Origin: an uncultured Gammaproteobacteria bacterium
GTDB lineage: Bacteria; Patescibacteriota; Microgenomatia; CAZETR01; Amesbacteraceae
DNA length: 64,000 bases
Reading direction: 5' to 3'
Assembly: GCA_964518565.1 (NCBI GenBank)
Contig: CAZFGX010000001.1
Location: forward strand, 734,568 to 798,567
How positions within the stretch are numbered: the stretch's first letter is position 1; each line of letters begins with the position of its first letter. The notes under the pieces were generated by a model. That model did no database searches, was not told the origin of the DNA, and saw only the letters and a program-made list of their open reading frames with translations. Made by a program: the position numbers and the translations under genes. Shown piece by piece: positions 1 to 28,739 of the stretch.

Positions 1-3000
1 ACTTCTTGGGATGTTAGTAGCACTGGTGTAGCTAGCGGTCTCACTGGTCTCACTTCATCTGGAACTATCACTTTTTCCGGACTCAGTAGTGCTGGCCTAG
101 TCACAAACACCTCCGGTGGTGTACTTGGCACCACTACTACTATCGGCGCTGCATATATCACCGCCGATTCCTTAGACTTCACTGAATTCAAAGACTCAAT
201 GGCCCTCGACGCCGCCCTCACCATAGCGCAGGGTACTAATACTTGGACTCAGACATTCACCGGTACGACTGGTCCTGCCATATCTCTGACCGCCTCTGGC
301 AATGTTTCTTCTGGTAATGCCTCTGCTTTGTATATCAATGCTTCAAATGCCTCATCCAGTGTCTCACCTGTCATGATTAGTAATAGCTCTGCTCAACCCA
401 GTATCTGGATCAACGACGATGGTACAGATGCCGACAGTACTCCATTTGTAGTTGATGCCTCTGGCAATGTCGGAATTGGCGATTCAACACCAGACAATGC
501 CTTAGATATTGCCGGCACCACAAATGGTATCTACGGTATTGATGTCACCAACTCCAGCAACGGCTCGGGTGCCGTAACCACAGCCAGCTTCACCAACGAT
601 GCTTCAGCTCAAGTGCTAGTCGGTATGGGTGGTTCCAACGCCATCGCCAATGTATTAGGTAGCCGAGCATTTATGCAAAGCAACTCTACTTCAAACGGTA
701 TCTCTCTAGTCGCAAATGGATCAGCCGACGACATTCGCTTCTTCACCGGTGGCCAAGCCACTACCAATGAAAAACTTAGAATCTCAGATCTTCCTGCCGC
801 AGGGGCTTCCGGAGACATCATTTCCTCCACCTACACCTTAAATGCCATGGATGGCTCAGACACTGTCAATGCCATGATTCTCAGCCTTACCAACCCCAAC
901 CACACCATTGGCTCAAATGTGCTAAATGGCATAAACATTGCTGGTATTACAGGTGACGCAGATGCTACTGAAAACGCCTTCCAAGTTGGAACCGGTTGGG
1001 ACAATGTCCTCTCATACAACAACACCGCCATCATCAATGGTTCAGGCATACTACAATCAGCCGCTCTCTCAGGAACATATTCAAATGCCCTAACGCTCTC
1101 CTCAACTTCAAACGCCTTCACTGGTACCATTGGTCAATCCACAGCCCTAGCCGGATCATTCACCACTCTATCCTCAACTGGAGCCACCACCTTGGGCAAC
1201 AATTCTTCCACAGTTGCTATCGACACCACTTCTTGGGATGTCAGTTCAGCTGGCGCCATCTCCGGACTCACTGGATTCACCCAAGCATCCGGAGCCTTTT
1301 CCTCCACTCTTAGTACTACAAATACTGCCACTTTCAATTCCACCACAGCCAATTCTGACTCTATCGGTATCAAGCCCCAAACCACCACAGCTACTAATTC
1401 TTTCACTGGCACCATCACTTCAGATGATCTGACTGCTGCTCGCACCTGGACTCTTCCAGATGCCACCGGTACCATCTGTGTCTCTGGCCAATCATGTGCT
1501 TTGACCGGTACCGTCACTTCATCAGGCAGTTCTCTAAACACCCAACTCGCCTACTTTACTAGCGACTCAAATATCACCGGTAGCAGCACCTACACATTTA
1601 GTCCCAGCCCCACAACTGGTGCTGGTTTAGCACTTACTGGTTCTGGAGTGACTTCCGGATCACTCTCTCGCTTCACTGGATCTGGCGCCACCATGACTAC
1701 CGGTGGTGAACTCCTAGACTTAGTCATGGGTGCCAACACAGTTGGTGCTGGCATGACAATTACTTCTACTGGTGTATATACCGGAACTGGCGCTGCCGAT
1801 GGTCTAATAAACGTCGTCGCCAATTCTCTTACCACCGGGCTCGGATCTCAATATTCCTACACCGGTCTTACATCTGGATCTGGTGAAAGAGTTACTGGAT
1901 CTGGCGCTACCATGACTACTGGTGGTGAACTTCTAGACTTAGTACTTGGTGCCAACACTGTCGGTGCCGGCATCACCGTTACCTCTTCTGGTACCTACAC
2001 TGGCACTGGATCAGCCGATGGACTCATCAATGTAGTTGCCAACTCTCTCACCACCGGCGATGGTTCAAAGATGTCCTTCACTGGTCTGACTTCTGGCACA
2101 GGTTTAGAAATCATCGGCGGTACATCAATGACTACCAACGGTGAATTAGTAGACTTAAATATGGGTGCCGCCACAGCTGGAAATGGTCTAAACATAAATA
2201 CTTCAGGCGTCTATACAGGTACTGGCCTAGCCGTTCTTACTGCAAACGCCATGACCACAGGCCAAGCCATGAGTATCTCCACTACCGGACTCACATCTGG
2301 ATCCGCTCAAAGAATCACCGGATCCGGAGCAACAATGACTACTGGCGGCGAATTAGTAGATTTAGTTCTAGGTGCCAACACAGTTGGCGCTGGTATGACC
2401 ATCACTTCCACGGGCGCCTACACAGGTGTCGGCACTGCTGACGGTTTAATAAACTTAACTGCCAATTCACTCACCACAGGATACGCTAGTCAAATATTTA
2501 CCAACGGCCTCACCACTGGTAGATCACTAAACATCAATTCCACATCAACAGCATTAACTACTGGTAGTCTTGGATATCTCGAATGGGCTCCTGGCTCCAG
2601 TACCACCGCCACATCTGCAGATCTTTTCCGCATCAACATTGGCACAAATGGTAATCTGTCATCAGGCAATTTATTCAATGTCACAGATGCCGGCACCACC
2701 CTCTTCTCTGTCAACGAATCTCAAGTTACTTCAGCTCTTCCACACCAATTCACCGCCTCAGGAGACGTATCTATCGCCTACGATCTCAATTTCACCAATC
2801 AAACTTCCAGCTTTATCAAATCCAATTCCTCACTCACTATCCAATCAGGTGAAAGTTTCGAATCAAACAATCTGACTCTACAAACCTATGGTTCTGGCCG
2901 AGTTGTCTTTGATGTCAACGGTACAGCCAACGGCGGCATCCTACTTTCAAATGCTCCTTCTTCCCAAACTCCCAAAGGCTTATTCATGGTCTCGGGAACT

Positions 3001-4434
3001 GCCACAAACAATGCGCTGGCCATCTTCAATGAAACTGGCAGTGCTGCCATTCTTACAGCTTCAAACTCTGGCACAACCGTCATGACCCTCACAAATGGTT
3101 CTGGTGCAGATCTTATTATCGGTGCCGATGGTACCAATACTGCCGCCAACATTAGCGGCAATGGTCTACTCGCTTATGGCGCCATCTGTGCCGACGACAC
3201 TCTAGACACAGCCGACGATTGTATCGACGCTTCCCGCACAGCCGGAACAGTGTATGGAATTTCTTCCAGCTTCACCATCGATGACGTTGGCGAAAACTTC
3301 CCCACACTCGACAACAACATTCAAGCCGGTGATGTCGTCAGTACAGATTATCAAAGCATTCCCAATGAACCAGCTGCTGAAAACTACGCTTACGAAACTG
3401 AATTCGTTAAAAAAGCTACAAACGGAGATACTTCAAAAGTCTTAGGCGTAATCTCCGAAAAACCTGGCGTACTTCTCGGTGGCTGGGGTCAGAAAAAAGA
3501 TCCACGCTCAGTCAAAGACGTGGCCATTGCCCTTTCTGGTCGTATTCCAGTTAAAATCTCTCAAAACTCAGCTCCTATTCAAGCCGGAGATTATCTGACC
3601 ACCAGTTCCGAACCTGGAAAAGCCCAAAAAGCCACCAAACCAGGCCATATGATTGGAAAAGCTTTAGATGCCTGGAATCCTAATAGCGGAAAAGACACTG
3701 TCCTATTCTTTGTCCAAAATGGTTGGGCGGATCCAACCAATTTCCTTGCTTTCGATGACAGTGGAAATCTTGTAGTGCCTGGTACAGTGACTGCTTCAGA
3801 ATTTGCTGCCAAAACAACAGATATCAACAATCAAACAATTCAAATTACCAATATCAAATCAGAATTAGATGTCCTAAAAGATCAAGTTGCTTCTATCTCT
3901 GCCGAACTAGCCAATCTCCAAACAAACAACGCCTCTTCTAGTGGTCTACCAATAGATCAAAACTGGGCAATTTCTACAGATTCTGGCCGACTAGTGACCA
4001 CTCTAGCCGTTCAAGTACCTCAGCTCTCAGTTACTGGCAGACTCAATGTCGGTACACTCGTCTTTGACGACATTCTCTCAGACATCACTTCATTAACAGG
4101 CGAAATTTCTCTCAACGGTGGCGTAGTCACGATCGACGATCAGGGTAATATCACCACCACTGGCACACTAGCCGCCAAAGAAATAACCACTGAAAAAGTA
4201 AATATCCTCGGTACGGCGACAGAAAGTGCCTCACTTGGCAAAGCAGTCATCCCCACTGGTACGACAGAATTCAGTATCGACACTACAGCGGTCTCCACTA
4301 GCTCATCAGTCTTTGTTACTCCAGAAATCCCAGTTGCCATCTCCGCAAGTGCCACAGAATCTGGTAAGTTTGTAGTTCGTATCCCCCAAATTCAACCTAC
4401 TGATGTCAAATTCAGCTGGTGGGTCATTAACTAA
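1..4434 (+). CDS. Giant Thr/Ser/Gly-rich repetitive surface protein (adhesin or fibre-like), 5'-truncated by the window edge. It has a C-terminal coiled-coil followed by a globular domain.
   Basis: Frame 1 is open from nt 1 with no stop before 4432-4434, so the ORF-track start at 199 is only the first in-window ATG. Composition is dominated by T/S/G/N. There are four ~73-aa tandem repeats (TGSGATMTTGGELLDLVxGANTVGAG...). A heptad-like segment ITNIKSELDVLKDQVASISAELANLQ lies near the C-terminus. Confidence 0.7.
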   Translation, partial: TSWDVSSTGVASGLTGLTSSGTITFSGLSSAGLVTNTSGGVLGTTTTIGAAYITADSLDFTEFKDSMALDAALTIAQGTNTWTQTFTGTTGPAISLTASGNVSSGNASALYINASNASSSVSPVMISNSSAQPSIWINDDGTDADSTPFVVDASGNVGIGDSTPDNALDIAGTTNGIYGIDVTNSSNGSGAVTTASFTNDASAQVLVGMGGSNAIANVLGSRAFMQSNSTSNGISLVANGSADDIRFFTGGQATTNEKLRISDLPAAGASGDIISSTYTLNAMDGSDTVNAMILSLTNPNHTIGSNVLNGINIAGITGDADATENAFQVGTGWDNVLSYNNTAIINGSGILQSAALSGTYSNALTLSSTSNAFTGTIGQSTALAGSFTTLSSTGATTLGNNSSTVAIDTTSWDVSSAGAISGLTGFTQASGAFSSTLSTTNTATFNSTTANSDSIGIKPQTTTATNSFTGTITSDDLTAARTWTLPDATGTICVSGQSCALTGTVTSSGSSLNTQLAYFTSDSNITGSSTYTFSPSPTTGAGLALTGSGVTSGSLSRFTGSGATMTTGGELLDLVMGANTVGAGMTITSTGVYTGTGAADGLINVVANSLTTGLGSQYSYTGLTSGSGERVTGSGATMTTGGELLDLVLGANTVGAGITVTSSGTYTGTGSADGLINVVANSLTTGDGSKMSFTGLTSGTGLEIIGGTSMTTNGELVDLNMGAATAGNGLNINTSGVYTGTGLAVLTANAMTTGQAMSISTTGLTSGSAQRITGSGATMTTGGELVDLVLGANTVGAGMTITSTGAYTGVGTADGLINLTANSLTTGYASQIFTNGLTTGRSLNINSTSTALTTGSLGYLEWAPGSSTTATSADLFRINIGTNGNLSSGNLFNVTDAGTTLFSVNESQVTSALPHQFTASGDVSIAYDLNFTNQTSSFIKSNSSLTIQSGESFESNNLTLQTYGSGRVVFDVNGTANGGILLSNAPSSQTPKGLFMVSGTATNNALAIFNETGSAAILTASNSGTTVMTLTNGSGADLIIGADGTNTAANISGNGLLAYGAICADDTLDTADDCIDASRTAGTVYGISSSFTIDDVGENFPTLDNNIQAGDVVSTDYQSIPNEPAAENYAYETEFVKKATNGDTSKVLGVISEKPGVLLGGWGQKKDPRSVKDVAIALSGRIPVKISQNSAPIQAGDYLTTSSEPGKAQKATKPGHMIGKALDAWNPNSGKDTVLFFVQNGWADPTNFLAFDDSGNLVVPGTVTASEFAAKTTDINNQTIQITNIKSELDVLKDQVASISAELANLQTNNASSSGLPIDQNWAISTDSGRLVTTLAVQVPQLSVTGRLNVGTLVFDDILSDITSLTGEISLNGGVVTIDDQGNITTTGTLAAKEITTEKVNILGTATESASLGKAVIPTGTTEFSIDTTAVSTSSSVFVTPEIPVAISASATESGKFVVRIPQIQPTDVKFSWWVIN
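1672..2540 (+). repeat. Four tandem coding repeats of ~219/219/204/225 nt inside the giant surface-protein gene
   Basis: Repeat unit F/VTGSGATMTTGGEL(L/V)DLV(M/L)GANTVGAG(M/I)T(I/V)TS(T/S)G.YTGTG.ADGLIN(V/L)(V/T)ANSLTTG recurs at nt 1672, 1891, ~2110 (diverged) and ~2314 in the translated frame. Confidence 0.8.
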
Positions 4435-4435
4435 C

Positions 4436-7400
4436 ATGCGTATCAAAAAACCCAAATTCACCAAGAAAAAATTCTTTAGTTTTATCAGCAGTTTATTTCT
4501 TTTTATCGGAATTGCGGCAGTCTTTATGCGGCTTACAGCACCGGCAATCGAAGCCGCTTGGTTCGATGATACGTATGCCTATCGTGTCAAACTCATTTTT
4601 ACCCACAATGCCACTATTGGTGACCCTCGAGCCGTGACTTACAGGCTCGATACCGCCGAACTCATTTCGGCCAACATGATGCAATCAGATTGTGATGATA
4701 TTCGGTTTACAGATGTAAATGGCAAATCATTACTCTATGACCTTACAGGCACTTGCAACAACGCCACCACTGCATTTGAAATAGTTTTTCCCAACATAGT
4801 AAACGGATCAAATATTGCCTATGCGTATTACGGCAGTCCAAATGCCGTGAACGGTGAAATCGACTCTACCCAATTTACAGCTCTCACCCCATCTGGAGGC
4901 GATCCATCAGACGAAACCGCACCCACCACCAATCAAGAAGTAGGCCCCGGCCCAATTCTGTATTGGAAATTTGATGAAAAAGTCGGCACTACTGCATATG
5001 ACAGCACCTTAAACAGAAACAACGGCACGGTTGATTCTGCTTCTTATTGGAAAACTCCAGATTTATGTGCCAGTGGTCCATGTATTTATTTCACCGGTGG
5101 CAACAATCGTGTTTCCAAAAGTTACAGTTCAGATACTGAACTTGATCCTGGCAGTGGCAGTATGACTATCTCAGCCTGGACAAAACGTTCAGCCACAGCT
5201 ACTGATACAGACTATATCGTTTCCCGCGAATCTACCGGTGGATACAACTTATATATGAACAGTAGCGGCAATCTGTGTTTTGAAATCAAATCCGGCGCCA
5301 ACACAGACACTGCCTGCTCCACCACAACCTATGTAGATTCTACTTGGCACTATATCACTGGAGTAAAAAATGCCACCACATCAATAACTCTCTATATAGA
5401 TGGCAAACAAATGGGTCAAGACGCATCAATATCCGCCACCGGTTCAATCAGCGGTTCGTCCCCTACATTTTCCGTTGGTAGAAATTCCGACGGCGTCACT
5501 ACAAATGAATGGGTAGGTTTTATAGATGAAGTCAAATACTACAATTACGCCAAATCCGCCACTCAAGTACTGAATGAATTTAGCACCAAAACTCAATCAA
5601 AAGGTACCAATGCATCTTTTGGCGATAGTAGCACTACAAATCTTTCCAGCAATGGCCTGATGGGCTATTGGAAAATGGATGAGTACACCTCAAATCTCTG
5701 TTCAGGCGGCGCAAATGATAGTTGTGACTCATCTGGAAACAGTAATGATGGTCTATGGAATGGCAATGTCGCCGCCGTCTCTGCCACCAAATATTTTTAC
5801 GGCACATCCTACGACGGTACTGGAGATTATGTTGGCACTTCAAACAATAATTCAGTCAAAGGTAAATCCCAAGTTTCGGTGTCTATGTGGATCTACCCCA
5901 CAACAGTCAATTCCGTCCAACGAGACATCTATGCCGAACCCATAAATGCCGATGATTCAAATCGTTTTGAGCTAATGCTAGATTCTGACAACGCTATGTA
6001 TTTTGGTGGCCGCAGCACCGACACCAACAGTTTTGAAGATTGGGCAGATGGCACTACTACTATTAGTGCAAATAATTGGTATCACATTGTCGCTATATAC
6101 GACGGTGTAACCGGTAAACACAAACTATATGTCAACAATATTCTCCAAGACTCTTTCTCGACCACCCCAAGAGCCTTTGACAACACAAATCCATTTGCAG
6201 TCCCAAGAATTGGCGCCAACACTCTCGGAACTACTGGATTCATAGGCCGAATCGACGAAGTCAAACTTTACAGCCGAGCCCTAAGTGCCAATGAAGTCAC
6301 CAATTTATACGATGTTGGACCTGGTCCAGTCGGATATTACAAACTCGATGAAGCCGGTGGCACTACTGTGACAGACAATGCCAGCGCAAATACAGGAGTT
6401 CTCACTTCTAGTCCTGTTTGGGTCACCGGCAAATACGGACAAGGTCTAAAATTTGACGGCAGTGCTTCGTATGTCCGTGGCGACTCCCCTTCTACAAACT
6501 TAGCCTTAGTAGAAAATGTCACTGTCTCTGCCTGGGTCTATCGCCGCGTCGCCGGGGCCAATCACACCGTCGTCGAATATGCTTCAAATGGTGAAACCGA
6601 AACCACCAACGAAGCCTACAGTTTATTAATCAACTCGACAAACAATCTGGAGCTAAATTGGGAACATAGCACAGGGACAAACGATAGCACTGTTTCCACC
6701 GCCACGCTAACGACCACCTCCGGCGCCTGGATTCATGTCGCCGCAGTACGAGATATAAACAACAACACCGTCAAATTTTACGAAAATGGCGTTCAGTTAG
6801 GCACTACGGTTTCATATACAAACGATCCATCTGGTTCAGACAGCTCGTCAAATCGTATAGATATCGGTCGAGATGCCAGCAATGGTACAAACTATTTTGA
6901 CGGCACGATAGATGATGTAAGAATTTATAACTACACGCTCACCCCCAAACAATTAGCCATTGAAATGAATGCCGACCATCCCACAGTTGGCACACCCGTC
7001 GGCGCATATATCTCCTATTGGCCATTTGATGAAGGACGGGGTACTACGGCCAATGACAAATCATTAAATGCCGACAATCTCACTCTTTCCACTTCATCCT
7101 GGACCAGCACTGGAAAATTTTTCAATGCCTGGAATGGCCTTGGTACAAACTACATCTCTCGGTCAAATGACAGTGATTACGATGTCGACACCAACAGTTT
7201 TTCAATTAGTTTTTGGTTCAAGTCAGACAACAGCGGCGGCTCAGGTACCCAGTACATAGTAAACCGTGCCTCGTCCACCATCGCCGGATTTGCCGTCTAT
7301 GGAAATTCTTCTGGAAACATTGTCTTTGGCGTGGACGACGACACCAGCTGGGGGCCAGATGCCATCGTCACCTCTTCCAGCAATTTATACAATCAAGCCT

Positions 7401-9070
7401 GGCATCACATTGTCGCCGTAAAAACCGATACTTCCAGATTAGACCTGTATGTCGACGGCAAGCTAAATGCCTCAACAACTACTGGTGTTCCCACTGGCTC
7501 TCTTTCAAACGACCTTACCTTATATATAGGTGATCGCGACGGTACAGACAATGGCGATGAAGCCTTGGTGGATCTTGATGAAGTCAAAATTTATTCTGGC
7601 GCCTTGTCTCTTCAAGATGTCCAAGTCGAATACAATCACGCTTCCCAAACCCAACTCGGATCGCTCTCCACCAGTTCAGATGGTGTCACCATAGCAAACG
7701 ATACTGCACGTGGATACTGTGTCCCTGGCGATACCTCTACATGCAACACCCCAGTCTTAGAATTACAAATGGATGAAAACTCAGGCACATCAGCATTTGA
7801 CACCTCCGGAAATGGCAACACCGGCACACTCACGTTAGGCCCCACCTGGACAGCAGGCAAATTAGGCCCAGCCGTAAGTTTCGACGGCTCAGACGACTAC
7901 ATCACCGTTACAGACGCCAACAGTTTAGATCTCACCACCAGCGGTTCAGCCATGGCCTGGGTACGTCGAACCAGCACAGGTACTTACGACACGATCCTAG
8001 GCAAAGGTGCAGCAAACGCTGCAGCATCCCACAATTACGCTATGGAATTTACCGATACAAACACAATGGATGTCATTGTCGGTGGTGGTGGTGTGAGTGG
8101 CCAAACTTGCAACGACGGTTCTACGACATTTACAGACACCACCAACTGGCATCACTATGCTATGACGTGGGACAATTCAAATATACGTTTCTATTACGAC
8201 GGTAAACAAGCATTCAGTTGTACTCAAACTGTAGCAGGCACGGCAAATACAGCAGCATTATTAATAGGAATGTTTGGCGGAAGTGTGGACAATCTCGCCG
8301 GACAAATAGACTCAGTCAAAGTCTACAATTACACTCGCAGCGCATCTCAAATATCCTGGGATTACAACCAAGGCAAATCAGTCGCATATTGGAAATTTGA
8401 TGAATGTCAGGGATCTACTCTCTATGATTCATCTGGTGGCGGCTACAATGGTACTTGGAATGGCGCTTCCAGCGGCACTCAAACATCAGTCGGCTCATGC
8501 AACACTTCAAGTACTGCCTGGGGCAATGGCGCTACTGGCAAATTCAGTTCATCACTAAACTTTGACGGTACAAACGACTATGTCGAAGTCGCAAATGCCG
8601 CAGCATTAAATTATGTTTCTAGACCATTTAGTATTTCTGTATGGCTCAATAAAGGTAGTTCATTTGGCTCAACCTTTGCCCGCGTAGTAGACAAAATTAG
8701 TGCCGGCACAGGAAATGGCTATGGAATAGATATGCACGACACAACCATTCGCATCTTGGGTAGCACCAGCGTTGGCTTTACCTACTCTACCTCATCCAGC
8801 ACCTGGTACCATCTCGTAGCCACATATGACGGATCAAGTACTGGTACTTTATATATAAATGGAAACTTAGTTAGTTCTGGCTCATATGCAGCAGCCAATG
8901 CCTACACCGGCACACTTCGTATCGGTGCCGCCAGCGACGCCACCTCACCATTTACCGGTAAAATTGATGAAGTACAAATATTCCCCTATGCACTCACCGC
9001 CAGACAAGTAAAAACCATTTACAACCAAAACTCTGCCATTCGCTTTGGTCCACAAACTGGTACACCCTAG
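4436..9070 (+). CDS. Giant secreted or membrane-anchored protein with an N-terminal TM/signal anchor and at least six concanavalin-A-like/LamG (LamG_3-type) lectin domains
   Basis: N-terminal hydrophobic helix FFSFISSLFLFIGIAAVFM. Six recurring jelly-roll C-terminal strands: IDEVKYYNYAKSATQV, IDEVKLYSRALSANEV, IDDVRIYNYTLTPKQL, LDEVKIYSGALSLQDV, IDSVKVYNYTRSASQI, IDEVQIFPYALTARQV. Start placed at the ATG at 4436 immediately after the upstream stop; the track start at 4403 would overlap by 32 nt. Confidence 0.75.
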   Translation: MRIKKPKFTKKKFFSFISSLFLFIGIAAVFMRLTAPAIEAAWFDDTYAYRVKLIFTHNATIGDPRAVTYRLDTAELISANMMQSDCDDIRFTDVNGKSLLYDLTGTCNNATTAFEIVFPNIVNGSNIAYAYYGSPNAVNGEIDSTQFTALTPSGGDPSDETAPTTNQEVGPGPILYWKFDEKVGTTAYDSTLNRNNGTVDSASYWKTPDLCASGPCIYFTGGNNRVSKSYSSDTELDPGSGSMTISAWTKRSATATDTDYIVSRESTGGYNLYMNSSGNLCFEIKSGANTDTACSTTTYVDSTWHYITGVKNATTSITLYIDGKQMGQDASISATGSISGSSPTFSVGRNSDGVTTNEWVGFIDEVKYYNYAKSATQVLNEFSTKTQSKGTNASFGDSSTTNLSSNGLMGYWKMDEYTSNLCSGGANDSCDSSGNSNDGLWNGNVAAVSATKYFYGTSYDGTGDYVGTSNNNSVKGKSQVSVSMWIYPTTVNSVQRDIYAEPINADDSNRFELMLDSDNAMYFGGRSTDTNSFEDWADGTTTISANNWYHIVAIYDGVTGKHKLYVNNILQDSFSTTPRAFDNTNPFAVPRIGANTLGTTGFIGRIDEVKLYSRALSANEVTNLYDVGPGPVGYYKLDEAGGTTVTDNASANTGVLTSSPVWVTGKYGQGLKFDGSASYVRGDSPSTNLALVENVTVSAWVYRRVAGANHTVVEYASNGETETTNEAYSLLINSTNNLELNWEHSTGTNDSTVSTATLTTTSGAWIHVAAVRDINNNTVKFYENGVQLGTTVSYTNDPSGSDSSSNRIDIGRDASNGTNYFDGTIDDVRIYNYTLTPKQLAIEMNADHPTVGTPVGAYISYWPFDEGRGTTANDKSLNADNLTLSTSSWTSTGKFFNAWNGLGTNYISRSNDSDYDVDTNSFSISFWFKSDNSGGSGTQYIVNRASSTIAGFAVYGNSSGNIVFGVDDDTSWGPDAIVTSSSNLYNQAWHHIVAVKTDTSRLDLYVDGKLNASTTTGVPTGSLSNDLTLYIGDRDGTDNGDEALVDLDEVKIYSGALSLQDVQVEYNHASQTQLGSLSTSSDGVTIANDTARGYCVPGDTSTCNTPVLELQMDENSGTSAFDTSGNGNTGTLTLGPTWTAGKLGPAVSFDGSDDYITVTDANSLDLTTSGSAMAWVRRTSTGTYDTILGKGAANAAASHNYAMEFTDTNTMDVIVGGGGVSGQTCNDGSTTFTDTTNWHHYAMTWDNSNIRFYYDGKQAFSCTQTVAGTANTAALLIGMFGGSVDNLAGQIDSVKVYNYTRSASQISWDYNQGKSVAYWKFDECQGSTLYDSSGGGYNGTWNGASSGTQTSVGSCNTSSTAWGNGATGKFSSSLNFDGTNDYVEVANAAALNYVSRPFSISVWLNKGSSFGSTFARVVDKISAGTGNGYGIDMHDTTIRILGSTSVGFTYSTSSSTWYHLVATYDGSSTGTLYINGNLVSSGSYAAANAYTGTLRIGAASDATSPFTGKIDEVQIFPYALTARQVKTIYNQNSAIRFGPQTGTP

Positions 9071-9122
9071 CTAGCTTATACCCCTTGACTCAAATAGATC
9101 AAAGTAATAATCTGTACATCAG

Positions 9123-9320
9123 ATGACATCAGCAAATCTTTCCGAACTTCCAGACCTTCTCACTGTCAAAGAAGTCGCTGCTGTCTTACGAGTTTCAGTT
9201 CTTACAGTCAAACGCTGGGGCAAACGCGGTAAGCTCGTCCCTATCCGTATCAACTCCCGCGGCGATCGTCGCTACAAAAAAGAAGCCGTCCAATGGCTTC
9301 TCGGAATAACTCCTAAATAG
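9123..9320 (+). CDS. Small helix-turn-helix DNA-binding protein of the excisionase/MerR-like (HTH_17) family
   Basis: LTVKEVAAVLRVSVLTVKRWGKRGKLVPIRI matches the excisionase-family HTH signature. 65 aa. Confidence 0.6.
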   Translation: MTSANLSELPDLLTVKEVAAVLRVSVLTVKRWGKRGKLVPIRINSRGDRRYKKEAVQWLLGITPK

Positions 9321-10023
9321 CAAACTCCTGAATCTTATCTCCTACCCGCACCATATAGTTCCCCTTGGTCAAATCCAATATTTTTCCAATATATCCATTA
9401 TCTCCCACTCCTGTCATTGGTAACTGTTGCCACTCACTCGCACCAACTGATTTATATTCCACTAGATCCACCTTCTGTCGACTTACCACCGTTACCAAAA
9501 CAGAACGAGAATCTATAGGCAAAACAGAAATACTAAATATTTCAGACTTTGCCCCCACCTGGGTATTCTGAGACCGAGAAGCCAATTTCATACTTACCCA
9601 CAATCCACCCAATAGAAAAACAGCCACAAAGCTCAAAAATAATACCCGCGGCGCACTAGCAGGTTTTGATCCCGCTGCTCCATCACTAATCTTTTGTACA
9701 AACAGCCCATCTCCTCCATACCAACGTTTTCCACAGCGCACACAATATCGTACTTCAATAGTCACTGGCACATCTTCGCCCACATATCGCTGCAACATCA
9801 TTCCATCTTGAGGACACACACCAGTACCCCCCTTTAACCATAAGGAATCGATTTTTACTCGCCTCATGGCAACGAGCGCATGGGGATCGATCTCAGAAAA
9901 TGTATGCGCATCAGCCCAAAATCCCCCACAATGAAAACATCTGTACAAAAATTTTCCATCGATTTGTATATCGGACAATCGCGAACCACAATCAGGGCAT
10001 TTCATCTTGTTTAGTATACTCAA
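9313..10023 (-). CDS. Membrane protein with two N-terminal zf-TFIIB-like zinc ribbons, one TM helix and a C-terminal extracytoplasmic domain (paralog A)
   Basis: MKCPDCGSRL...YRCFHCGGFWAD and CPQDG...CVRCGKRWYGGD fit the CPxCG...CxxCGG(F/I)W(L/A)D pattern. Hydrophobic segment VLFLSFVAVFLLGGLWV. Confidence 0.55.
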   Translation of the reverse strand: MSILNKMKCPDCGSRLSDIQIDGKFLYRCFHCGGFWADAHTFSEIDPHALVAMRRVKIDSLWLKGGTGVCPQDGMMLQRYVGEDVPVTIEVRYCVRCGKRWYGGDGLFVQKISDGAAGSKPASAPRVLFLSFVAVFLLGGLWVSMKLASRSQNTQVGAKSEIFSISVLPIDSRSVLVTVVSRQKVDLVEYKSVGASEWQQLPMTGVGDNGYIGKILDLTKGNYMVRVGDKIQEFAI

Positions 10024-10744
10024 TAACTAGTGGGTATTCCCGCTCAAATATCTTATAAATATAGTTTCCTGGGGTAAGTTTTCTCAAACTCGCTCGATAC
10101 CGCCGACCATCAAATTGAACCGGAACTGTAGAATAGTTCAGTTGGCCTGCAGGACGATACAAAATATTCGACACTGGCATACTGGAAGCAAAAACAATAT
10201 CTACATCTCCCTGACCAATAAACACAATAGCAATCCCCGACGCCTCACTACTCGCAGAAATTCCCACCCGCTGTGGCAGCTGTACCAATACGATTGATGT
10301 TGCCACCGCCCCAATGACAAAAATCAAACTTAAGGCCGGCAACGCTACCTTTTTCAATCCATCCTTATTCCATTGCAAGGTATACTCACGCTTAGCTTTC
10401 ATTGCTTCATAAAAAGTGAACAATGAATTGTGCGGAAACCACCAATTTCTACACGCATCACATACACCTGCCACAAATCCCTCTGGCACTAGCTCACGAT
10501 GTGGCGAGTTTAAAATCCAGCCATCGGTAGGACACGCATTAGTCCCTCCAGCAGGACTTTCGCCAGCATGTTCTTTTACTTCCAAACTCTTTCCTTCTGC
10601 CAACGCATTGACCACCCAATTTGGCACCCAAAATCCTCCACATCGAGCACAACGAAAAGACTCATCAATTCCTATGACAGAAACAGTTTGCAGCTCCGCC
10701 GCACACCCCGGACACAACATATAAAAATAGTATAGCTTAACCAA
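9992..10744 (-). CDS. Membrane protein with two zf-TFIIB-like zinc ribbons, a TM helix and a C-terminal domain (paralog B of 9313..10023)
   Basis: CPGCAAEL...FRCARCGGFWVPNW and CPTDG...CDACRNWWFP. TM helix VALPALSLIFVIGAVATSIVLV. Same architecture and similar length as the downstream paralog, overlapping it by 32 nt. Confidence 0.55.
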   Translation of the reverse strand: MVKLYYFYMLCPGCAAELQTVSVIGIDESFRCARCGGFWVPNWVVNALAEGKSLEVKEHAGESPAGGTNACPTDGWILNSPHRELVPEGFVAGVCDACRNWWFPHNSLFTFYEAMKAKREYTLQWNKDGLKKVALPALSLIFVIGAVATSIVLVQLPQRVGISASSEASGIAIVFIGQGDVDIVFASSMPVSNILYRPAGQLNYSTVPVQFDGRRYRASLRKLTPGNYIYKIFEREYPLVIEYTKQDEMP

Positions 10745-10964
10745 AAGTTGACAACCAACCCAAAAAGGATTAATACTTAATGTATGGCATACAATGACAC
10801 ACTAGACAAAATAGACGCCGAACTAAAAAAACAAATCAAGCAACAATCTGAAGGCAATCTCTCAGGTAGTGATGAAAGACGACGTGATCGTGAAGAAGCG
10901 GCCGAAGAACGAAAGAAAAATAACCCGTCTTCAGCCGAAGGTTCTGGAATGGCCAGATAATTTT

Positions 10965-12200
10965 TTACGCTACTCTCTCCTTCAACGCTGAATAAAACTT
11001 CTCCAAATATACTTTTGCCTTTGTCCAATTATTCTCTTTCATTTCCATATTTGCCATATAAGCCAAATGTGCCGATTTCGTCGCTTGAAATTCTGAAAAC
11101 CGAAACTTTTCAGCTATCAACTGCTTCTGACCTTCTTCACTCTGGTTTTGCCACAAATTAATCTCAAAATTAGCTACAATCTCCGGCTCAAAGGCCAGGC
11201 CCACATTTCGCTTAATCAGCTCATACAATCCCACCAGGGCCTTCTTCGCCCCTTCCCATTCATCAGCCTTTCGATGGGCCAATGCACTTACCAAATGAAT
11301 ACCCGCCTCTTTTGCCAGATCTTTAGATAAGCCATATTGCTCTTTCAAATAGTTAATCGCTTCATCTTTCAAAGATCCAGCATCTCCAATTGCCAGAGCC
11401 CGTTGCCATTTTATTTCCAAATCCGCCACTACCTCAGGATTAAATCTCATATGCTCTACTGCATCATTTCCTCCAAATCTTCGTCTGCGCCGAGAATAAT
11501 CTACTACCGCCTCTACCAATTTTTCCGGAGTAAAATCCGGCAAATGATCTTGCTCCCAATAAAACTCTGCATACGCCATCTGCAAAGGCAGGAGTCCCGA
11601 TGTCCGCTGTTCTCCCGATGTCCGAATAAACAAATCTACATATGGATATGGTTGATCAGCCGTATCCAAATAGCTCTCAAATACTTTTTCATTTATGGGA
11701 GTCGTATCGGCATTAGCCAATTTTGATTCCAAAATTTTATTTGTCGCCCGCACGATTTCATCTTTGCCACCATAATCCAGCGCAATATTGAGTAAATAAT
11801 TTGTGTAGTGAGCAGATTCCGACTCCAATCGGCGAATCTCTGACACCACATCAGCTGGAAAACGATCCTTTCGCCCCAAATGCACCAATCGCATTTTTTC
11901 TTGATGCAAATCCTTTTCAATATCTTTCAAAGCCAGGCGCAAAATATGCACGATTTCATCGACCTCGGCCTGTGGCCTTTCCCAATTCTCTGTGGAAAAC
12001 GCCCAAATAGTAAATGTATGAATTCCCAGTTCGCGCACTGCATATCCCAAGCGTTTTATGGCCTGATATCCAGCCTTATGCCCTTCCCAAGGCTGCAAAC
12101 CCCGAGCCCGTGCCCAGCGCCTATTGCCATCCAAAATCATGGCAATATGGTTTGGCAAATTAGTGCCTGGAGGCAAGTTAATACGTTCTTTCTTTTTCAT
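10965..12200 (-). CDS. uppS: Undecaprenyl-diphosphate synthase (cis-prenyltransferase) with a ~170-aa C-terminal extension of unknown function
   Basis: N-terminus HIAMILDGNRRWA...FTIWAFSTENWERP is the UPPS signature. The protein is 411 aa, whereas a typical UPPS is ~240 aa. Confidence 0.8.
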   Translation of the reverse strand: MKKKERINLPPGTNLPNHIAMILDGNRRWARARGLQPWEGHKAGYQAIKRLGYAVRELGIHTFTIWAFSTENWERPQAEVDEIVHILRLALKDIEKDLHQEKMRLVHLGRKDRFPADVVSEIRRLESESAHYTNYLLNIALDYGGKDEIVRATNKILESKLANADTTPINEKVFESYLDTADQPYPYVDLFIRTSGEQRTSGLLPLQMAYAEFYWEQDHLPDFTPEKLVEAVVDYSRRRRRFGGNDAVEHMRFNPEVVADLEIKWQRALAIGDAGSLKDEAINYLKEQYGLSKDLAKEAGIHLVSALAHRKADEWEGAKKALVGLYELIKRNVGLAFEPEIVANFEINLWQNQSEEGQKQLIAEKFRFSEFQATKSAHLAYMANMEMKENNWTKAKVYLEKFYSALKERVA

Positions 12201-12220
12201 ATCTGACCATTATAGCGAAT

Positions 12221-13003
12221 GTGTCGTATTATCATACAATGCCAGATCGCCAACCATCTAGTCATAAGTTTTCCCGACGTACACTCTTCCGTTTTGCTGG
12301 AGCTGCCAGTATGGAACATTTTTTCGGCGAAATCCCCTCTGTCGCTTGGGCTGAAACCGACAAAACTCCAGAATCAGTCAGAAAATTTATTGAAACAATC
12401 GTCATCAACCCACCCTTAATTGGCACAAATCAAAATGCTGGCAAAAATCTGGACTTTGGCAAAGGCTGGGCCACATTTCATTTAGATGAAAACTCCCCCA
12501 TCATGCAAACAGTAATAAACAATCGCCTCAAAAGCATCCAAAATCACCCGACAATCTCAAAAGAAGACCAAAATATTCTCCAACTCAAAGACCACAAATT
12601 GACAGAATTCATCGTCGAAAAACAATCCCATCTCTCAATTGCAGAAGCTTTAGCCAGTAAAAAATATCTTGGCGCAGTTGCTACCCGCGGAACTCACGAC
12701 ATTGGCCAAGAATATGTCGTATTCACTCAAAAAACCTCCACTGCACCAATAGAATTTACCGGTATCGCCTTATGTGTCGACAATTCCGGCGATGCCAAAA
12801 ATTTATACAAGCCGTACAAACTAGACGGCTGGAACAAAGCTGGCTACAAAAACACTCCTCTGGAATGGATGTTAGACGCCTCCGCCAATCTAATAAAAAA
12901 TCTTCCTCTTGGCCGTGCGCCATCCTCTGACTATCTTATGAGCGGCCGACCAGGAGTAATCGTTATCAGTCGACCTGTTTACGACAATTTAGTCAGCAAT
13001 TGA
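12221..13003 (+). CDS. Hypothetical secreted protein with a twin-arginine (Tat)-like signal peptide
   Basis: SRRTLFRFAGAAS...SVAWA contains an RR-x-(L)F motif, a hydrophobic core and an AxA cleavage site. No recognisable catalytic motif. Confidence 0.45.
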   Translation: MSYYHTMPDRQPSSHKFSRRTLFRFAGAASMEHFFGEIPSVAWAETDKTPESVRKFIETIVINPPLIGTNQNAGKNLDFGKGWATFHLDENSPIMQTVINNRLKSIQNHPTISKEDQNILQLKDHKLTEFIVEKQSHLSIAEALASKKYLGAVATRGTHDIGQEYVVFTQKTSTAPIEFTGIALCVDNSGDAKNLYKPYKLDGWNKAGYKNTPLEWMLDASANLIKNLPLGRAPSSDYLMSGRPGVIVISRPVYDNLVSN

Positions 13004-28196: not shown

Positions 28197-28267
28197 GGGC
28201 CATTAGCATAGTAGTAGTGCGCCGCATTCGCATTGCGGATACGGGGGTGCGATCCCCCCATGGTCCA
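28197..28267 (+). tRNA. tRNA-Ala (anticodon CGC)
   Basis: Hand-folded cloverleaf. Acceptor GGGCCAT/ATGGTCC with G3:U70. D-stem GCAT/GTGC. Anticodon stem CCGCA/TGCGG with loop TTCGCAT. T-arm GGGGG-TGCGATC-CCCCC. Discriminator A. CCA not encoded. Confidence 0.75.
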
Positions 28268-28336
28268 CCGAGTCTGCGAGCTGGATCATAGAGGAAATCA
28301 TAAAGATATTGATTTCCGATATGGTCCGATCAAATT

Positions 28337-28605: not shown

Positions 28606-28676
28606 GGGCCCGTAGTTCACCGGTAGAATAACTCAATGGCATTGAGTAGAAAGGGGTTCAATTCCCCTCGGGTCCA
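28606..28676 (+). tRNA. tRNA-Ala (anticodon GGC)
   Basis: Acceptor GGGCCCG/CGGGTCC with G3:U70. D-arm GTTC-ACCGGTA-GAAT. Anticodon stem ACTCA/TGAGT with loop ATGGCAT. Canonical T-arm AGGGG-TTCAATT-CCCCT. Confidence 0.8.
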
Positions 28677-28739
28677 CATAAATTTTCCCAATACAAGCGT
28701 CTTCACGAAAACCAAATTAACAAAAAAGTGTATGAGTAG

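Follow-up and report, generated by a model that had tools for sequence, protein, structure and literature searches.

The genomes of CPR/Patescibacteria are rich in conserved proteins of unknown function, and the organisation of the envelope in these bacteria is poorly understood. In the window analysed here, i.e. a stretch of 64,000 nucleotides from a tiny uncultured bacterium of Candidatus Amesbacteria (CPR), two overlapping genes, ORF2 and the downstream ORF1, raise the question of what kind of protein combines paired zinc ribbons with a membrane anchor, and what such a protein might do. The initial annotation described the products as paralogues, each crossing the membrane once between a head of zinc ribbons and a domain on the outside, and proposed for them either an anti-sigma-like role in transmembrane signalling or a role as a mobile-element-associated regulator. 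The structural reading was borne out by our analysis; the two functional proposals were not.

Two overlapping genes encode full-length paralogues

The two consecutive ORFs on the minus strand had been reported to encode 236 and 250 aa, and these lengths are correct when counted from the furthest TTG in each frame. Translation almost certainly begins at the ATG of MKCPDCG in ORF1 and at that of MLCPGCA in ORF2, giving proteins of 230 and 242 aa (ATGAAATGCCCTGA), because M1 is invariant in the family alignment and the orthologue in locus L003 can start only there. Counted from the ATG starts, the start of ORF1 and the end of ORF2 overlap by 14 nt, an arrangement that fits coupled translation, and ORF2 and ORF1 are probably coupled in this way. 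The coordinates of all features are listed in Table 1.

Both genes are real, since an exhaustive search at E<=1e-10 recovered 458 representative proteins and syntenic orthologues are present in 12 Amesbacteria-type loci. Moreover, ORF1 and ORF2 are tandem paralogues over their full length, as had been suggested (23% identity, E 2e-19). ORF2 belongs to a clade of positional orthologues, the ORF2-type clade, which is separate from the ORF1-type clade, and the order of the two genes is kept across Amesbacteria; separate clades with a kept order fit non-redundant, co-operating subunits. The promoter-like site upstream of ORF2 and the terminator-like hairpin behind ORF1 are weak candidates, because such matches are no more numerous than in shuffled sequence. 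Rfam returned no RNA element at E<=0.1 over positions 8000-13000.

Table 1. Features of the ORF2-ORF1 locus and its flanks (positions in the window)
Feature	Position	Strand	Remarks
HTH gene	9123..9320	+	MerR_1/HTH_17 small DNA-binding protein, BldC-like, 65 aa; convergent with ORF1, 8-nt overlap
Terminator-like hairpin and T-run	9280..9302	-	Consensus match only; 11 nt past ORF1 stop, within 3' end of HTH CDS
ORF1, downstream paralogue	9313..10005	-	230 aa from ATG; frame reaches TTG at 10023
ORF1 FN3-like beta-sandwich	9316..9543	-	Residues 155-230; Pur_ac_phosph_N type; Foldseek, family profile, PF16656 in relatives
ORF1 TM helix	9583..9645	-	Residues 121-141; topology analysis
ORF1 ribbon 2	9715..9822	-	Residues 62-97; C64-P-Q-D67-G ... 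C88-V-R-C91-GKRW; Asp at second ligand position
ORF1 ribbon 1	9910..10005	-	Residues 1-32; C3-P-D-C6 ... C23-F-H-C26-GGFW; four-Cys PF13453-type
ORF2, upstream paralogue	9992..10720	-	242 aa from ATG; frame reaches TTG at 10744
ORF2 TM helix	10277..10333	-	Residues 130-148; topology analysis
Promoter-like site	10727..10754	-	TTGTCA-16-TACTAT; consensus match only; ends 7 nt before ORF2 ATG
Cis-prenyltransferase gene, UppS-like	10965..12200	-	411 aa; C-terminal extension of ~165 aa; 244 nt upstream of ORF2, same strand

The N-terminal head pairs a canonical with a divergent zinc ribbon

Each protein had been credited with two ribbons of the form CPxCG...CxxCGG(F/I)W. This form was found in ribbon 1 (CPGC...CARCGGFW in ORF2) but not in ribbon 2, which follows the pattern CPxDG...CxxC, with Asp replacing the second Cys, and therefore offers three Cys and one Asp (CPQDG...CVRCGKRW in ORF1, CPTDG...CDACRNWW in ORF2). 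The suggested assignment to the zf-TFIIB family PF13453 (Zn_ribbon_TFIIB; gathering score 22 bits) was obtained in Pfam for ORF1 with 25.7 bits and was narrowly missed by ORF2, which scored 21.2 bits, just under the cut-off; 37 of 43 relatives match the family (best E-value 1.5e-20). In both ORF1 and ORF2 the match is confined to ribbon 1, and ribbon 2 scanned alone against Pfam gave no match.

In the family alignment, all four Cys of ribbon 1 are invariant or nearly so. In ribbon 2, C64, P65 and C88 are invariant and C91 is invariant or nearly so. The C-P-x-D...C-x-x-C pattern of ribbon 2 is present in all 26 Amesbacteria-type copies, and of 138 family-sized proteins, 89 have Asp and 36 have Cys at the second ligand position; relatives with a CPxC second ribbon match PF13453 twice. 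Moreover, AF2 modelled ribbon 2 with a pLDDT above 90. In total, the invariant residues, the CPxC relatives and the confident model suggest, by indirect evidence, that ribbon 2 is a derived zinc ribbon. Both ribbons of the head would be expected to bind zinc; however, ribbon 2 lacks one Cys and has no Pfam match, and thus zinc binding may be absent there. The systematic change from Cys to Asp is a small point of metalloprotein biochemistry that is testable.

When the head was modelled alone, a pLDDT of 87 and a pTM of 0.81 were obtained, supporting that the two ribbons form one unit. Foldseek detected no structural homologue in the PDB for the whole double-ribbon head; only the single ribbon of Thermus thermophilus ZifS (TTHA0897, PDB 8yoz) matched. 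Ribbon 1 is homologous to ZifS as judged by the family profile (E 1.4e-6), and in Foldseek the two align over 38 residues with an rmsd of 1.8 Å; ZifS differs in that it is a soluble protein of 82 aa with one ribbon. A function for ZifS/TTHA0897/8yoz or for PF13453 was not found in the literature searched. Distant relatives contain 2, 4 or 6 ribbons, and a hydrophobic C-terminus (...LLRLFLRR) is found in many proteins of ~200 aa. Thus, the paired ribbon behaves as a module, frequently one with a membrane tether.

A single TM helix leads to a fast-evolving FN3-like domain

Topology analysis identified one TM helix in each protein, in agreement with the initial annotation. We infer a bitopic N-in, C-out topology, with a K/R count that is nearly balanced under the positive-inside rule (2.7 before the TM helix vs 2.2 after). 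Behind the helix, an extracytoplasmic C-terminal domain of ~100 aa had been proposed; a beta-rich domain of ~80-90 aa is indeed present in each protein and would lie on the extracytoplasmic side. In the full-length AF2 model, the TM helix is followed by a beta-sandwich, with a pLDDT of 83-93 across the ectodomain. For the ectodomain, Foldseek ranked purple acid phosphatase (N-terminal domain) and FN3/Ig domains first (E 2e-3, probability 1.0), the family profile matches a contactin FN3 domain (E 1.2e-5), and Pur_ac_phosph_N (PF16656) was detected in 7/43 relatives (best E 2.5e-9); Pfam gave no match for the ectodomains of ORF1 and ORF2 themselves. We conclude that the ectodomain is FN3-like, i.e. 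a seven-strand beta-sandwich recognised by fold or profile.

Identity within orthologue clades is 42-56% for the ribbons (50-56% for ribbon 1) and 25-28% for the FN3 domain. The better conservation of the ribbons places the main constraint on the cytoplasmic side. Fast evolution of the ectodomain is also seen in exposed surface proteins, and the proteins could be surface receptors or adhesins in which the FN3 domain is the functional part, contacting a host cell, cell-wall polymers or the LamG giants, and the ribbons serve only as a stable anchor in the cytoplasm; the expansion of the array to 2-3 copies and the giant LamG surface proteins that adjoin it are compatible with this. We consider such a role quite unlikely, because it is the cytoplasmic head that is under the strongest constraint, a lone FN3 domain of ~80 aa with a short stalk would hardly reach beyond the cell wall, and the ribbon head also occurs in relatives without any ectodomain.

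Family members were detected only in Microgenomates

The family was found only in Microgenomates (CPR) and is kept in both Microgenomates lineages sampled. In Amesbacteria, its genes form tandem arrays of 1-3 ancient paralogues that lie downstream of uppS and are followed by a convergent gene for a BldC-like HTH protein; in Gottesmanbacteria-type relatives, there is a single-copy gene and no HTH gene nearby. Members are named "zf-TFIIB domain-containing protein" or "hypothetical" at NCBI. The family is uncharacterised, and it is at present a set of hypothetical proteins annotated by domain and not a new kind of system.

The convergent HTH gene is a conserved syntenic neighbour

The 65-aa protein encoded convergently with ORF1 had been assigned to the excisionase-type HTH family, and its gene had been described as overlapping the membrane-protein genes. 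Both statements are correct: the gene extends 8 nt into the end of ORF1, and the protein passes the curated thresholds of MerR_1, HTH_17 (38 bits vs a cut-off of 27) and TIGR01764 'excise' (29.6 bits vs 28.8). Its best NCBIfam match is NF033787 HTH_BldC with 43.9 bits (E 1.6e-11), which is under the family cut-off of 77. Like Streptomyces BldC, it is a small MerR-like HTH protein of ~65 aa without an effector domain; the host here, however, is a CPR bacterium and not an actinobacterium. A match to mad1 was rejected as generic HTH similarity.

The HTH gene directly follows the array in 9/12 Amesbacteria-type loci and is found at a distance of 1-4 kb in loci L006, L009 and L010; locus L011 ends at the array. 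The anticipated co-occurrence of the membrane proteins with an HTH gene in related genomes was therefore seen in Amesbacteria, but family members elsewhere have no such HTH gene nearby. Across loci, the HTH protein is 81-89% identical, vs 28-55% for the membrane proteins there. As operator-like repeats for the HTH protein, a palindrome at 9059-9082 and otherwise only short matches in two copies were detected, none of them convincing. In total, we conclude that the HTH protein belongs to the core genome as a BldC-like DNA-binding protein in its own right, with high conservation, and that its gene is a syntenic neighbour, by a link restricted to Amesbacteria, and a candidate functional partner at most.

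The notion that the membrane proteins are mobile-element cargo regulated by an excisionase draws on the score of the HTH protein with TIGR01764 and on its matches to PHROG excisionase families. This notion is effectively refuted. The ProRS-UppS-array-HTH-LamG block represents conserved chromosomal synteny that includes aminoacyl-tRNA synthetase genes, and the HTH protein is better conserved than ProRS. There is no integrase among the neighbours, i.e. within ~4 kb, there are no flanking repeats, and no tRNA gene lies closer than 19 kb. Finally, PHROGs and PADLOC returned nothing for the membrane proteins and thus no defence or phage signal.

The membrane proteins differ from zinc-binding anti-sigma factors

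Zinc-binding anti-sigma factors (ZAS: RsrA, RsiW, ChrR) include several proteins that span the membrane once and have their zinc site in the cytoplasm; the ZAS domain consists of helices with an HxxxCxxC motif, and its gene has an ECF sigma gene as a partner. The bitopic build of ORF1 and ORF2 and their cytoplasmic, potentially metal-binding head resemble membrane anti-sigma factors. By analogy, the heads could hold a transcription factor, either a sigma factor from another locus or the BldC-like HTH protein, that would be released when the FN3 domain senses the envelope or a host; the position of the HTH gene directly behind most Amesbacteria arrays would be compatible with this, as would the proposal that SamG-SamH of B. 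subtilis generates a stress signal. We regard a function of this type as unlikely.

Specifically, neither protein matched zf-HC2/ZAS or any further anti-sigma family of Pfam at E<=1, and no such match was seen among the 43 relatives; NCBIfam likewise showed no anti-sigma domain. The HxxxCxxC motif is absent from the sequences of ORF1 and ORF2, and their predicted zinc sites are beta-ribbons. As stated in the initial annotation, no ECF sigma gene is adjacent, the neighbours being uppS, the HTH gene and a LamG gene. Pfam identified no Sigma70 domain in the neighbours and 10 mid-size ORFs of the window, and tblastn with an RpoD-type sigma factor, a query that a divergent, more distant ECF sigma factor could escape, had no match over the 64 kb. 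In ~20 related loci, co-occurrence with an ECF sigma factor, as an anti-sigma role would suggest, was not observed beside the gene; in locus L010, the only sigma gene is a convergent one of the RpoD type. Concerning the HTH protein as the factor held, its gene is convergent and not co-transcribed with the array, its much higher level of identity agrees poorly with co-evolution of the two, and the Gottesmanbacteria-type members lack such a gene nearby.

Gene neighbourhoods are envelope-flavoured

The HTH gene had been considered the sole neighbour of the array; this is incorrect, as an uppS-like gene lies upstream of ORF2 on the same strand (Table 1). In every Amesbacteria locus, the array is located downstream of uppS on the same strand, with or without a polyprenyl synthase gene. 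In loci L003, L008, L009 and L010, the spacing between uppS and the array ranges from a 4-nt overlap to 35 nt, and in L001 and L002 an entire carotenoid-type cluster intervenes. In an independent subfamily (L014 and L015), BacA/UppP is encoded upstream of the gene, and in other lineages GDSL/SGNH hydrolase, LytR_cpsA_psr and NTP_transferase are encoded near it. Moreover, the window also encodes LamG giant proteins, WecG and a GT4 glycosyltransferase. Thus, the gene neighbourhoods are envelope-flavoured; no neighbour is common to the whole family in the related loci examined, and synteny differs by lineage.

These neighbourhoods suggest a possible, if improbable, alternative in which the proteins are accessories of the undecaprenyl-phosphate (Und-P) cycle that scaffold or regulate UppS, with possible docking at its unusual C-terminal extension, or act in downstream envelope polymer assembly. 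The invariable position behind uppS in Amesbacteria, the tight spacing in four loci, the position of the independent subfamily gene behind BacA/UppP, the enzyme that follows UppS in this cycle, and the proximity of LytR_cpsA_psr, WecG and NTP_transferase all point in this direction. However, the spacer of 244 nt in the window has its own promoter-like site, the carotenoid-type cluster separates uppS from the array in two loci, Gottesmanbacteria-type loci (L018-L023) have no prenyl genes nearby, and the link, which was noticed post hoc, involves two independent lineages only. Moreover, Amesbacteria loci share general synteny, and therefore the adjacency to uppS and the HTH gene could be inherited gene order without functional meaning. 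Still more speculatively, and in our estimate with little chance of being correct, the proteins could form a Microgenomates-specific envelope module that couples the Und-P cycle or a divisome-/elongasome-like machine to the outside, in which the Cys3-Asp ribbon would provide a labile metal site with a regulatory role and the hetero-oligomeric array would recruit UppS via its extension. If true, the supply of cell-wall precursors in reduced episymbiotic CPR bacteria would have an organiser that was not known before.

ORF1 and ORF2 may be membrane adaptors

The explanation that we favour, with a probability of about 0.5, is that ORF1 and ORF2 are membrane adaptors, the conserved ribbon head of which docks a cytoplasmic partner. 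In this model, ORF2 and ORF1 would be expressed as a two-gene unit, in some genomes co-transcribed with uppS, giving rise to two anciently duplicated bitopic proteins oriented N-in, C-out. The compact head of ~110 aa, with two PF13453-type ribbons, the first with four Cys and the second with three Cys and Asp, would act as a docking surface that tethers a conserved partner, either protein or nucleic acid, to the membrane. The fast-evolving extracellular FN3-like domain would contact the cell envelope or cell surface, and the two paralogues would probably act as a hetero-oligomer.

The closest analogues are YdjG/SamG of B. subtilis, ZitP of Caulobacter and GltJ of Myxococcus, all of which were compared by architecture alone. 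SamG is described as a protein in which a pair of N-terminal zinc ribbons precedes a TM segment and an extracytoplasmic domain; it recruits the cytoplasmic SPFH protein YdjI/SamI to the membrane, and thereby PspA. It shares with ORF1 and ORF2 the order of two zinc ribbons, TM helix and ectodomain; however, its ectodomain is NTF2-like and YpeB-related and not FN3-like, and it is a Firmicutes and not a CPR protein, encoded in the operon pspA-ydjGHI (pspA-samGHI) together with pspA, ydjH (TPM domain) and ydjI (Band-7). No pspA, TPM-domain or Band-7/SPFH gene is present among the genes from 199 to 21066 or in related loci.

GltJ is a membrane protein with a cytoplasmic N-terminal four-Cys zinc ribbon that functions as a regulated protein-binding module and binds MglB. 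The likeness to ORF1 and ORF2 consists in a cytoplasmic zinc ribbon on a membrane protein; GltJ differs in its single ribbon, behind which come a linker and a GYF domain, in its much larger size and in its place in the gliding motility machinery. If ORF1 and ORF2 are adaptors like SamG, ZitP and GltJ, naming their partner would shed light on one aspect of CPR cell biology, and their role would extend the emerging theme that small zinc ribbons are membrane-proximal protein-docking modules in bacteria.

Finally, ZitP is bitopic, with a cytoplasmic N-terminal zinc ribbon that binds PopZ, a TM helix and a DUF3426 domain, and it resembles ORF1 and ORF2 in combining a cytoplasmic ribbon and a TM helix with a beta-rich outside domain. 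It differs in its single PF13719-type ribbon, its DUF3426 ectodomain and its alphaproteobacterial partner PopZ; in Pfam, neither PF13719 nor DUF3426 matched ORF1 or ORF2, and PF13719 matched 1/43 relatives. Weak matches (E 0.03-0.6) were obtained to PDB entry 2nb9, which we take to be the ZitP ribbon.

Paralogy and gene models of ORF1 and ORF2

The ORF call on the window gave two consecutive minus-strand ORFs, 9992-10744 (ORF2, upstream) and 9313-10023 (ORF1, downstream). Because the Met immediately 5' of the first CPxC is invariant in the family alignment, and because MLCPGCA is the sole possible start of the ORF2 orthologue in the related locus L003, the gene starts were taken as 10720 and 10005, respectively. 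The start of ORF1 overlaps the stop of ORF2 by 14 nt (ATGAAATGCCCTGA), an arrangement typical for translational coupling, while the stop of ORF1 overlaps the convergent HTH ORF by 8 nt. ORF1 and ORF2 are paralogues that align over their full length with 23% identity (E 2e-19).

Features of the window, with the identity of relatives to the window proteins across the loci compared
Feature	Position	Strand	Description	Identity
ProRS				66-74%
UppS-like cis-prenyltransferase	10965-12200	-	411 aa; Prenyltransf domain, residues 22-243	58-76%
Spacer ORF (uppS-ORF2)	10784-10960	+	58 aa, highly charged; no Pfam match
Terminator-like hairpin	10943-10957		After the spacer ORF
Zinc-ribbon membrane proteins				28-55%
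ORF2	9992-10720	-	242 aa; start reset to ATG by family alignment and L003 orthologue
ORF1	9313-10005	-	230 aa; start reset by family alignment
ORF1 TM helix	residues 122-141		AlphaFold2 model
HTH ORF	9123-9320	+	65 aa, convergent	81-89%
Palindrome	9059-9082		Centred on TAGCTAGCTA; between LamG gene stop (9070) and HTH start (9123)
Giant protein	199-4434	+	1411 aa; no Pfam match
Giant protein	4403-9070	+	1555 aa; six Laminin_G_3 domains and a Toxin_R_bind_N match
Gene of 250-340 aa	12221-13003	+	No Pfam match; homologue in L001
Gene of 250-340 aa	14265-15281	+	No Pfam match
Gene of 250-340 aa	16715-17518	+	No Pfam match
Gene of 250-340 aa	20188-21066	-	No Pfam match; homologue in L009
tRNA-Ala	28197-28269	+	Anticodon CGC
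tRNA-Ala	28606-28677	+	Anticodon GGC; ~340 nt from the first

A double zinc-ribbon head joined to a predicted FN3-like ectodomain

Ribbon 1 (CPxC...CxxCGGFW) matches Pfam PF13453 (Zn_ribbon_TFIIB) with 25.7 bits in ORF1 and 21.2 bits in ORF2, i.e. above and below the cut-off of 22 bits, respectively. Moreover, the family profile matches ZifS of Thermus thermophilus (8yoz), a small zinc-finger protein of solved structure (E 1.4e-6). The initial annotation had assigned the form CPxCG...(R/K)C..CGG(F/I)W to both ribbons; this is correct for ribbon 1 but not for ribbon 2, which reads CPQDG...CVRCGKRW in ORF1 and CPTDG...CDACRNWW in ORF2. Cys64, Pro65, Cys88 and Cys91 of ribbon 2 are invariant or nearly so in family alignments, and at its second ligand position 89 of 138 family-sized proteins carry Asp and 36 carry Cys; all Amesbacteria-type copies carry Asp. 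Scanned alone against Pfam, ribbon 2 gave no match; since PF13453 matches two, four or six times in more distant relatives that have CPxC, it appears to be a derived PF13453 ribbon. Because the first 113 residues of ORF1, modelled alone, gave pLDDT 87 and pTM 0.81, the two ribbons are predicted to pack as a single unit, for which the single ribbon of ZifS was the only solved homologue in a structure search. The head presumably binds zinc.

The AlphaFold2 model of ORF1 (mean pLDDT 77) comprises both ribbons, a juxtamembrane helix, the TM helix and a C-terminal beta-sandwich, which is FN3-like. Foldseek matches this domain best to the N-terminal domain of purple acid phosphatase and to FN3/Ig domains; the family profile matches FN3 domains of contactin and Tie2, and PF16656 (Pur_ac_phosph_N) is present in 7 of 43 relatives. 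From the domain types we infer an N-in, C-out topology; the charges flanking the TM helix are nearly balanced in count between the two sides.

An exhaustive profile search of representative proteins gave 3432 matches at E<=1e-3, 458 at E<=1e-10 and 58 at E<=1e-30, and also recovered giant FN3-repeat proteins via the C-terminal region. Approximately 90 of the best 150 matches have the full architecture in 220-265 aa. According to genome records, the close relatives belong to Candidatus Amesbacteria; a sister subfamily is found in Candidatus Gottesmanbacteria and in other Patescibacteria. NCBI lists family members as "zf-TFIIB domain-containing protein" or as "hypothetical protein", and no functional study of the family was found in the searchable literature. 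A sister group of ~200 aa (P0012, P0074, P0109, P0172, P0175 and others) has a double PF13453 ribbon without the FN3 domain and a conserved hydrophobic C-terminal tail (...ILLRLFLRR), which may serve as a tail anchor or as an amphipathic helix that binds the membrane; four or six ribbons occur in other relatives. The many distant relatives in which a double ribbon precedes a C-terminal hydrophobic tail support frequent membrane tethering of the paired ribbon.

The gene array is part of a conserved chromosomal block

The whole block is syntenic across 12 Amesbacteria-type loci in the order ProRS, UppS-like prenyltransferase (400-413 aa), sometimes polyprenyl synthase, 1-3 tandem family genes, HTH and giant LamG proteins. 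In a neighbour-joining tree, the ORF1-type genes adjoining HTH form a "last gene" clade, distinct from the one or two "upstream" clades of ORF2-type genes; the duplication is therefore old, with both copies and the gene order retained. The initial annotation had suggested an association with a mobile element; given the core synteny, the lack of an integrase, border tRNA or repeat, and the lack of PHROG and PADLOC signals for ORF1 and ORF2, mobile-element cargo is scarcely credible.

The HTH gene directly follows the array in 9 of the 12 loci and lies 1-4 kb off in L006, L009 and L010. Its product passes the MerR_1, HTH_17 and TIGR01764 thresholds and has its best NCBIfam match, under the cut-off, in the BldC subfamily. 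This extreme conservation, above that of ProRS (81-89% against 66-74% identity), speaks against an excisionase and for a core DNA-binding protein; the HTH protein is probably a core regulator or a nucleoid protein of the Amesbacteria lineage. The palindrome beside its gene may be an operator or the stem of a terminator.

Outside Amesbacteria, the family gene occurs as a single copy, with no HTH gene of this kind nearby. BacA/UppP is encoded 1-2 genes upstream in L014 and L015, a GDSL/SGNH hydrolase 1-2 genes upstream in L018, L021 and L022, and a convergent RNase HII downstream in L018-L020, L022 and L023. Among the loci compared, no partner is kept across the whole family; cell-envelope biogenesis is a recurrent theme of the neighbourhoods. 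An accessory function in the lipid-carrier cycle would fit two lineages, which have uppS and bacA as neighbours, but a third lineage lacks them, and we regard this function as unlikely.

ORF1 and ORF2 as candidate membrane adaptors

The two proteins had also been likened to anti-sigma factors. Pfam detected no ZAS or other anti-sigma domain in ORF1, ORF2 or their relatives, and the HxxxCxxC motif is absent from ORF1 and ORF2. Moreover, neither Pfam scans of the neighbours and of 10 mid-size ORFs nor tblastn with an RpoD-type sigma revealed a sigma gene in the window, and no ECF sigma gene lies beside a family gene in any relative compared. The anti-sigma reading was therefore rejected; a signalling or sequestration device is distinctly unlikely.

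The best-supported reading, at a probability of about 0.5, is that ORF1 and ORF2 are a co-operating pair of bitopic membrane adaptors. In this model, a conserved partner from the cytoplasm would dock at the membrane on the double-ribbon head, which is itself conserved, and the FN3 domain, which evolves fast, would lie towards the envelope. A function as a surface receptor is very unlikely. Within orthologue clades, the ribbons share 42-56% identity (ribbon 1, 50-56%) compared to 25-28% for the FN3 domain. ORF1 and ORF2 may hetero-oligomerise. The putative adaptor role has architectural precedents in the literature: B. subtilis YdjG/SamG, built from two ZnRs, a TM helix and an ectodomain, serves as the anchor of the SPFH protein SamI, and the ZnRs of Caulobacter ZitP and Myxococcus GltJ bind PopZ and MglB, respectively. 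The family differs from these systems in its FN3 ectodomain, Cys3-Asp second ribbon, ordered tandem paralogy and restriction to Microgenomates. We conclude that it is a domain-annotated, uncharacterised family and a putative variant of the zinc-ribbon-anchored bitopic adaptor, which a specialist would find more plausible than surprising.

Other features of the window and the related loci

The UppS-like protein has a C-terminal extension of ~165 aa without a Pfam match, and the long form (398-413 aa) is kept in all Amesbacteria loci. In L001 (2846-9269) and L002 (777-2275), an inserted carotenoid-type cluster separates uppS from the zinc-ribbon pair, with genes for polyprenyl synthase, Caroten_synth (PF04240), a CrtI-like amine oxidase, SQS_PSY, a UbiA prenyltransferase and a GT2 glycosyltransferase; pigment biosynthesis is seemingly unexpected in a reduced CPR genome. 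The uppS-ORF2 spacer is 244 nt in the window; because it is only 25 nt in L003, the 58-aa spacer ORF is probably not a conserved gene. Relatives keep both giant proteins beside the HTH gene. L004 (CAYTYO010000005.1) has the order of the Amesbacteria loci (ProRS, UppS, a three-gene array, HTH, LamG), and its MAG label "uncultured Gammaproteobacteria bacterium" is probably wrong. Finally, GC skew is very strongly negative in all 2-kb bins of the window (1-64000; -0.11 to -0.36), spanning the plus-strand genes at 199-9070 and minus-strand genes alike, a sign of unusually strong replication-strand bias, the whole window lying on a single replichore.
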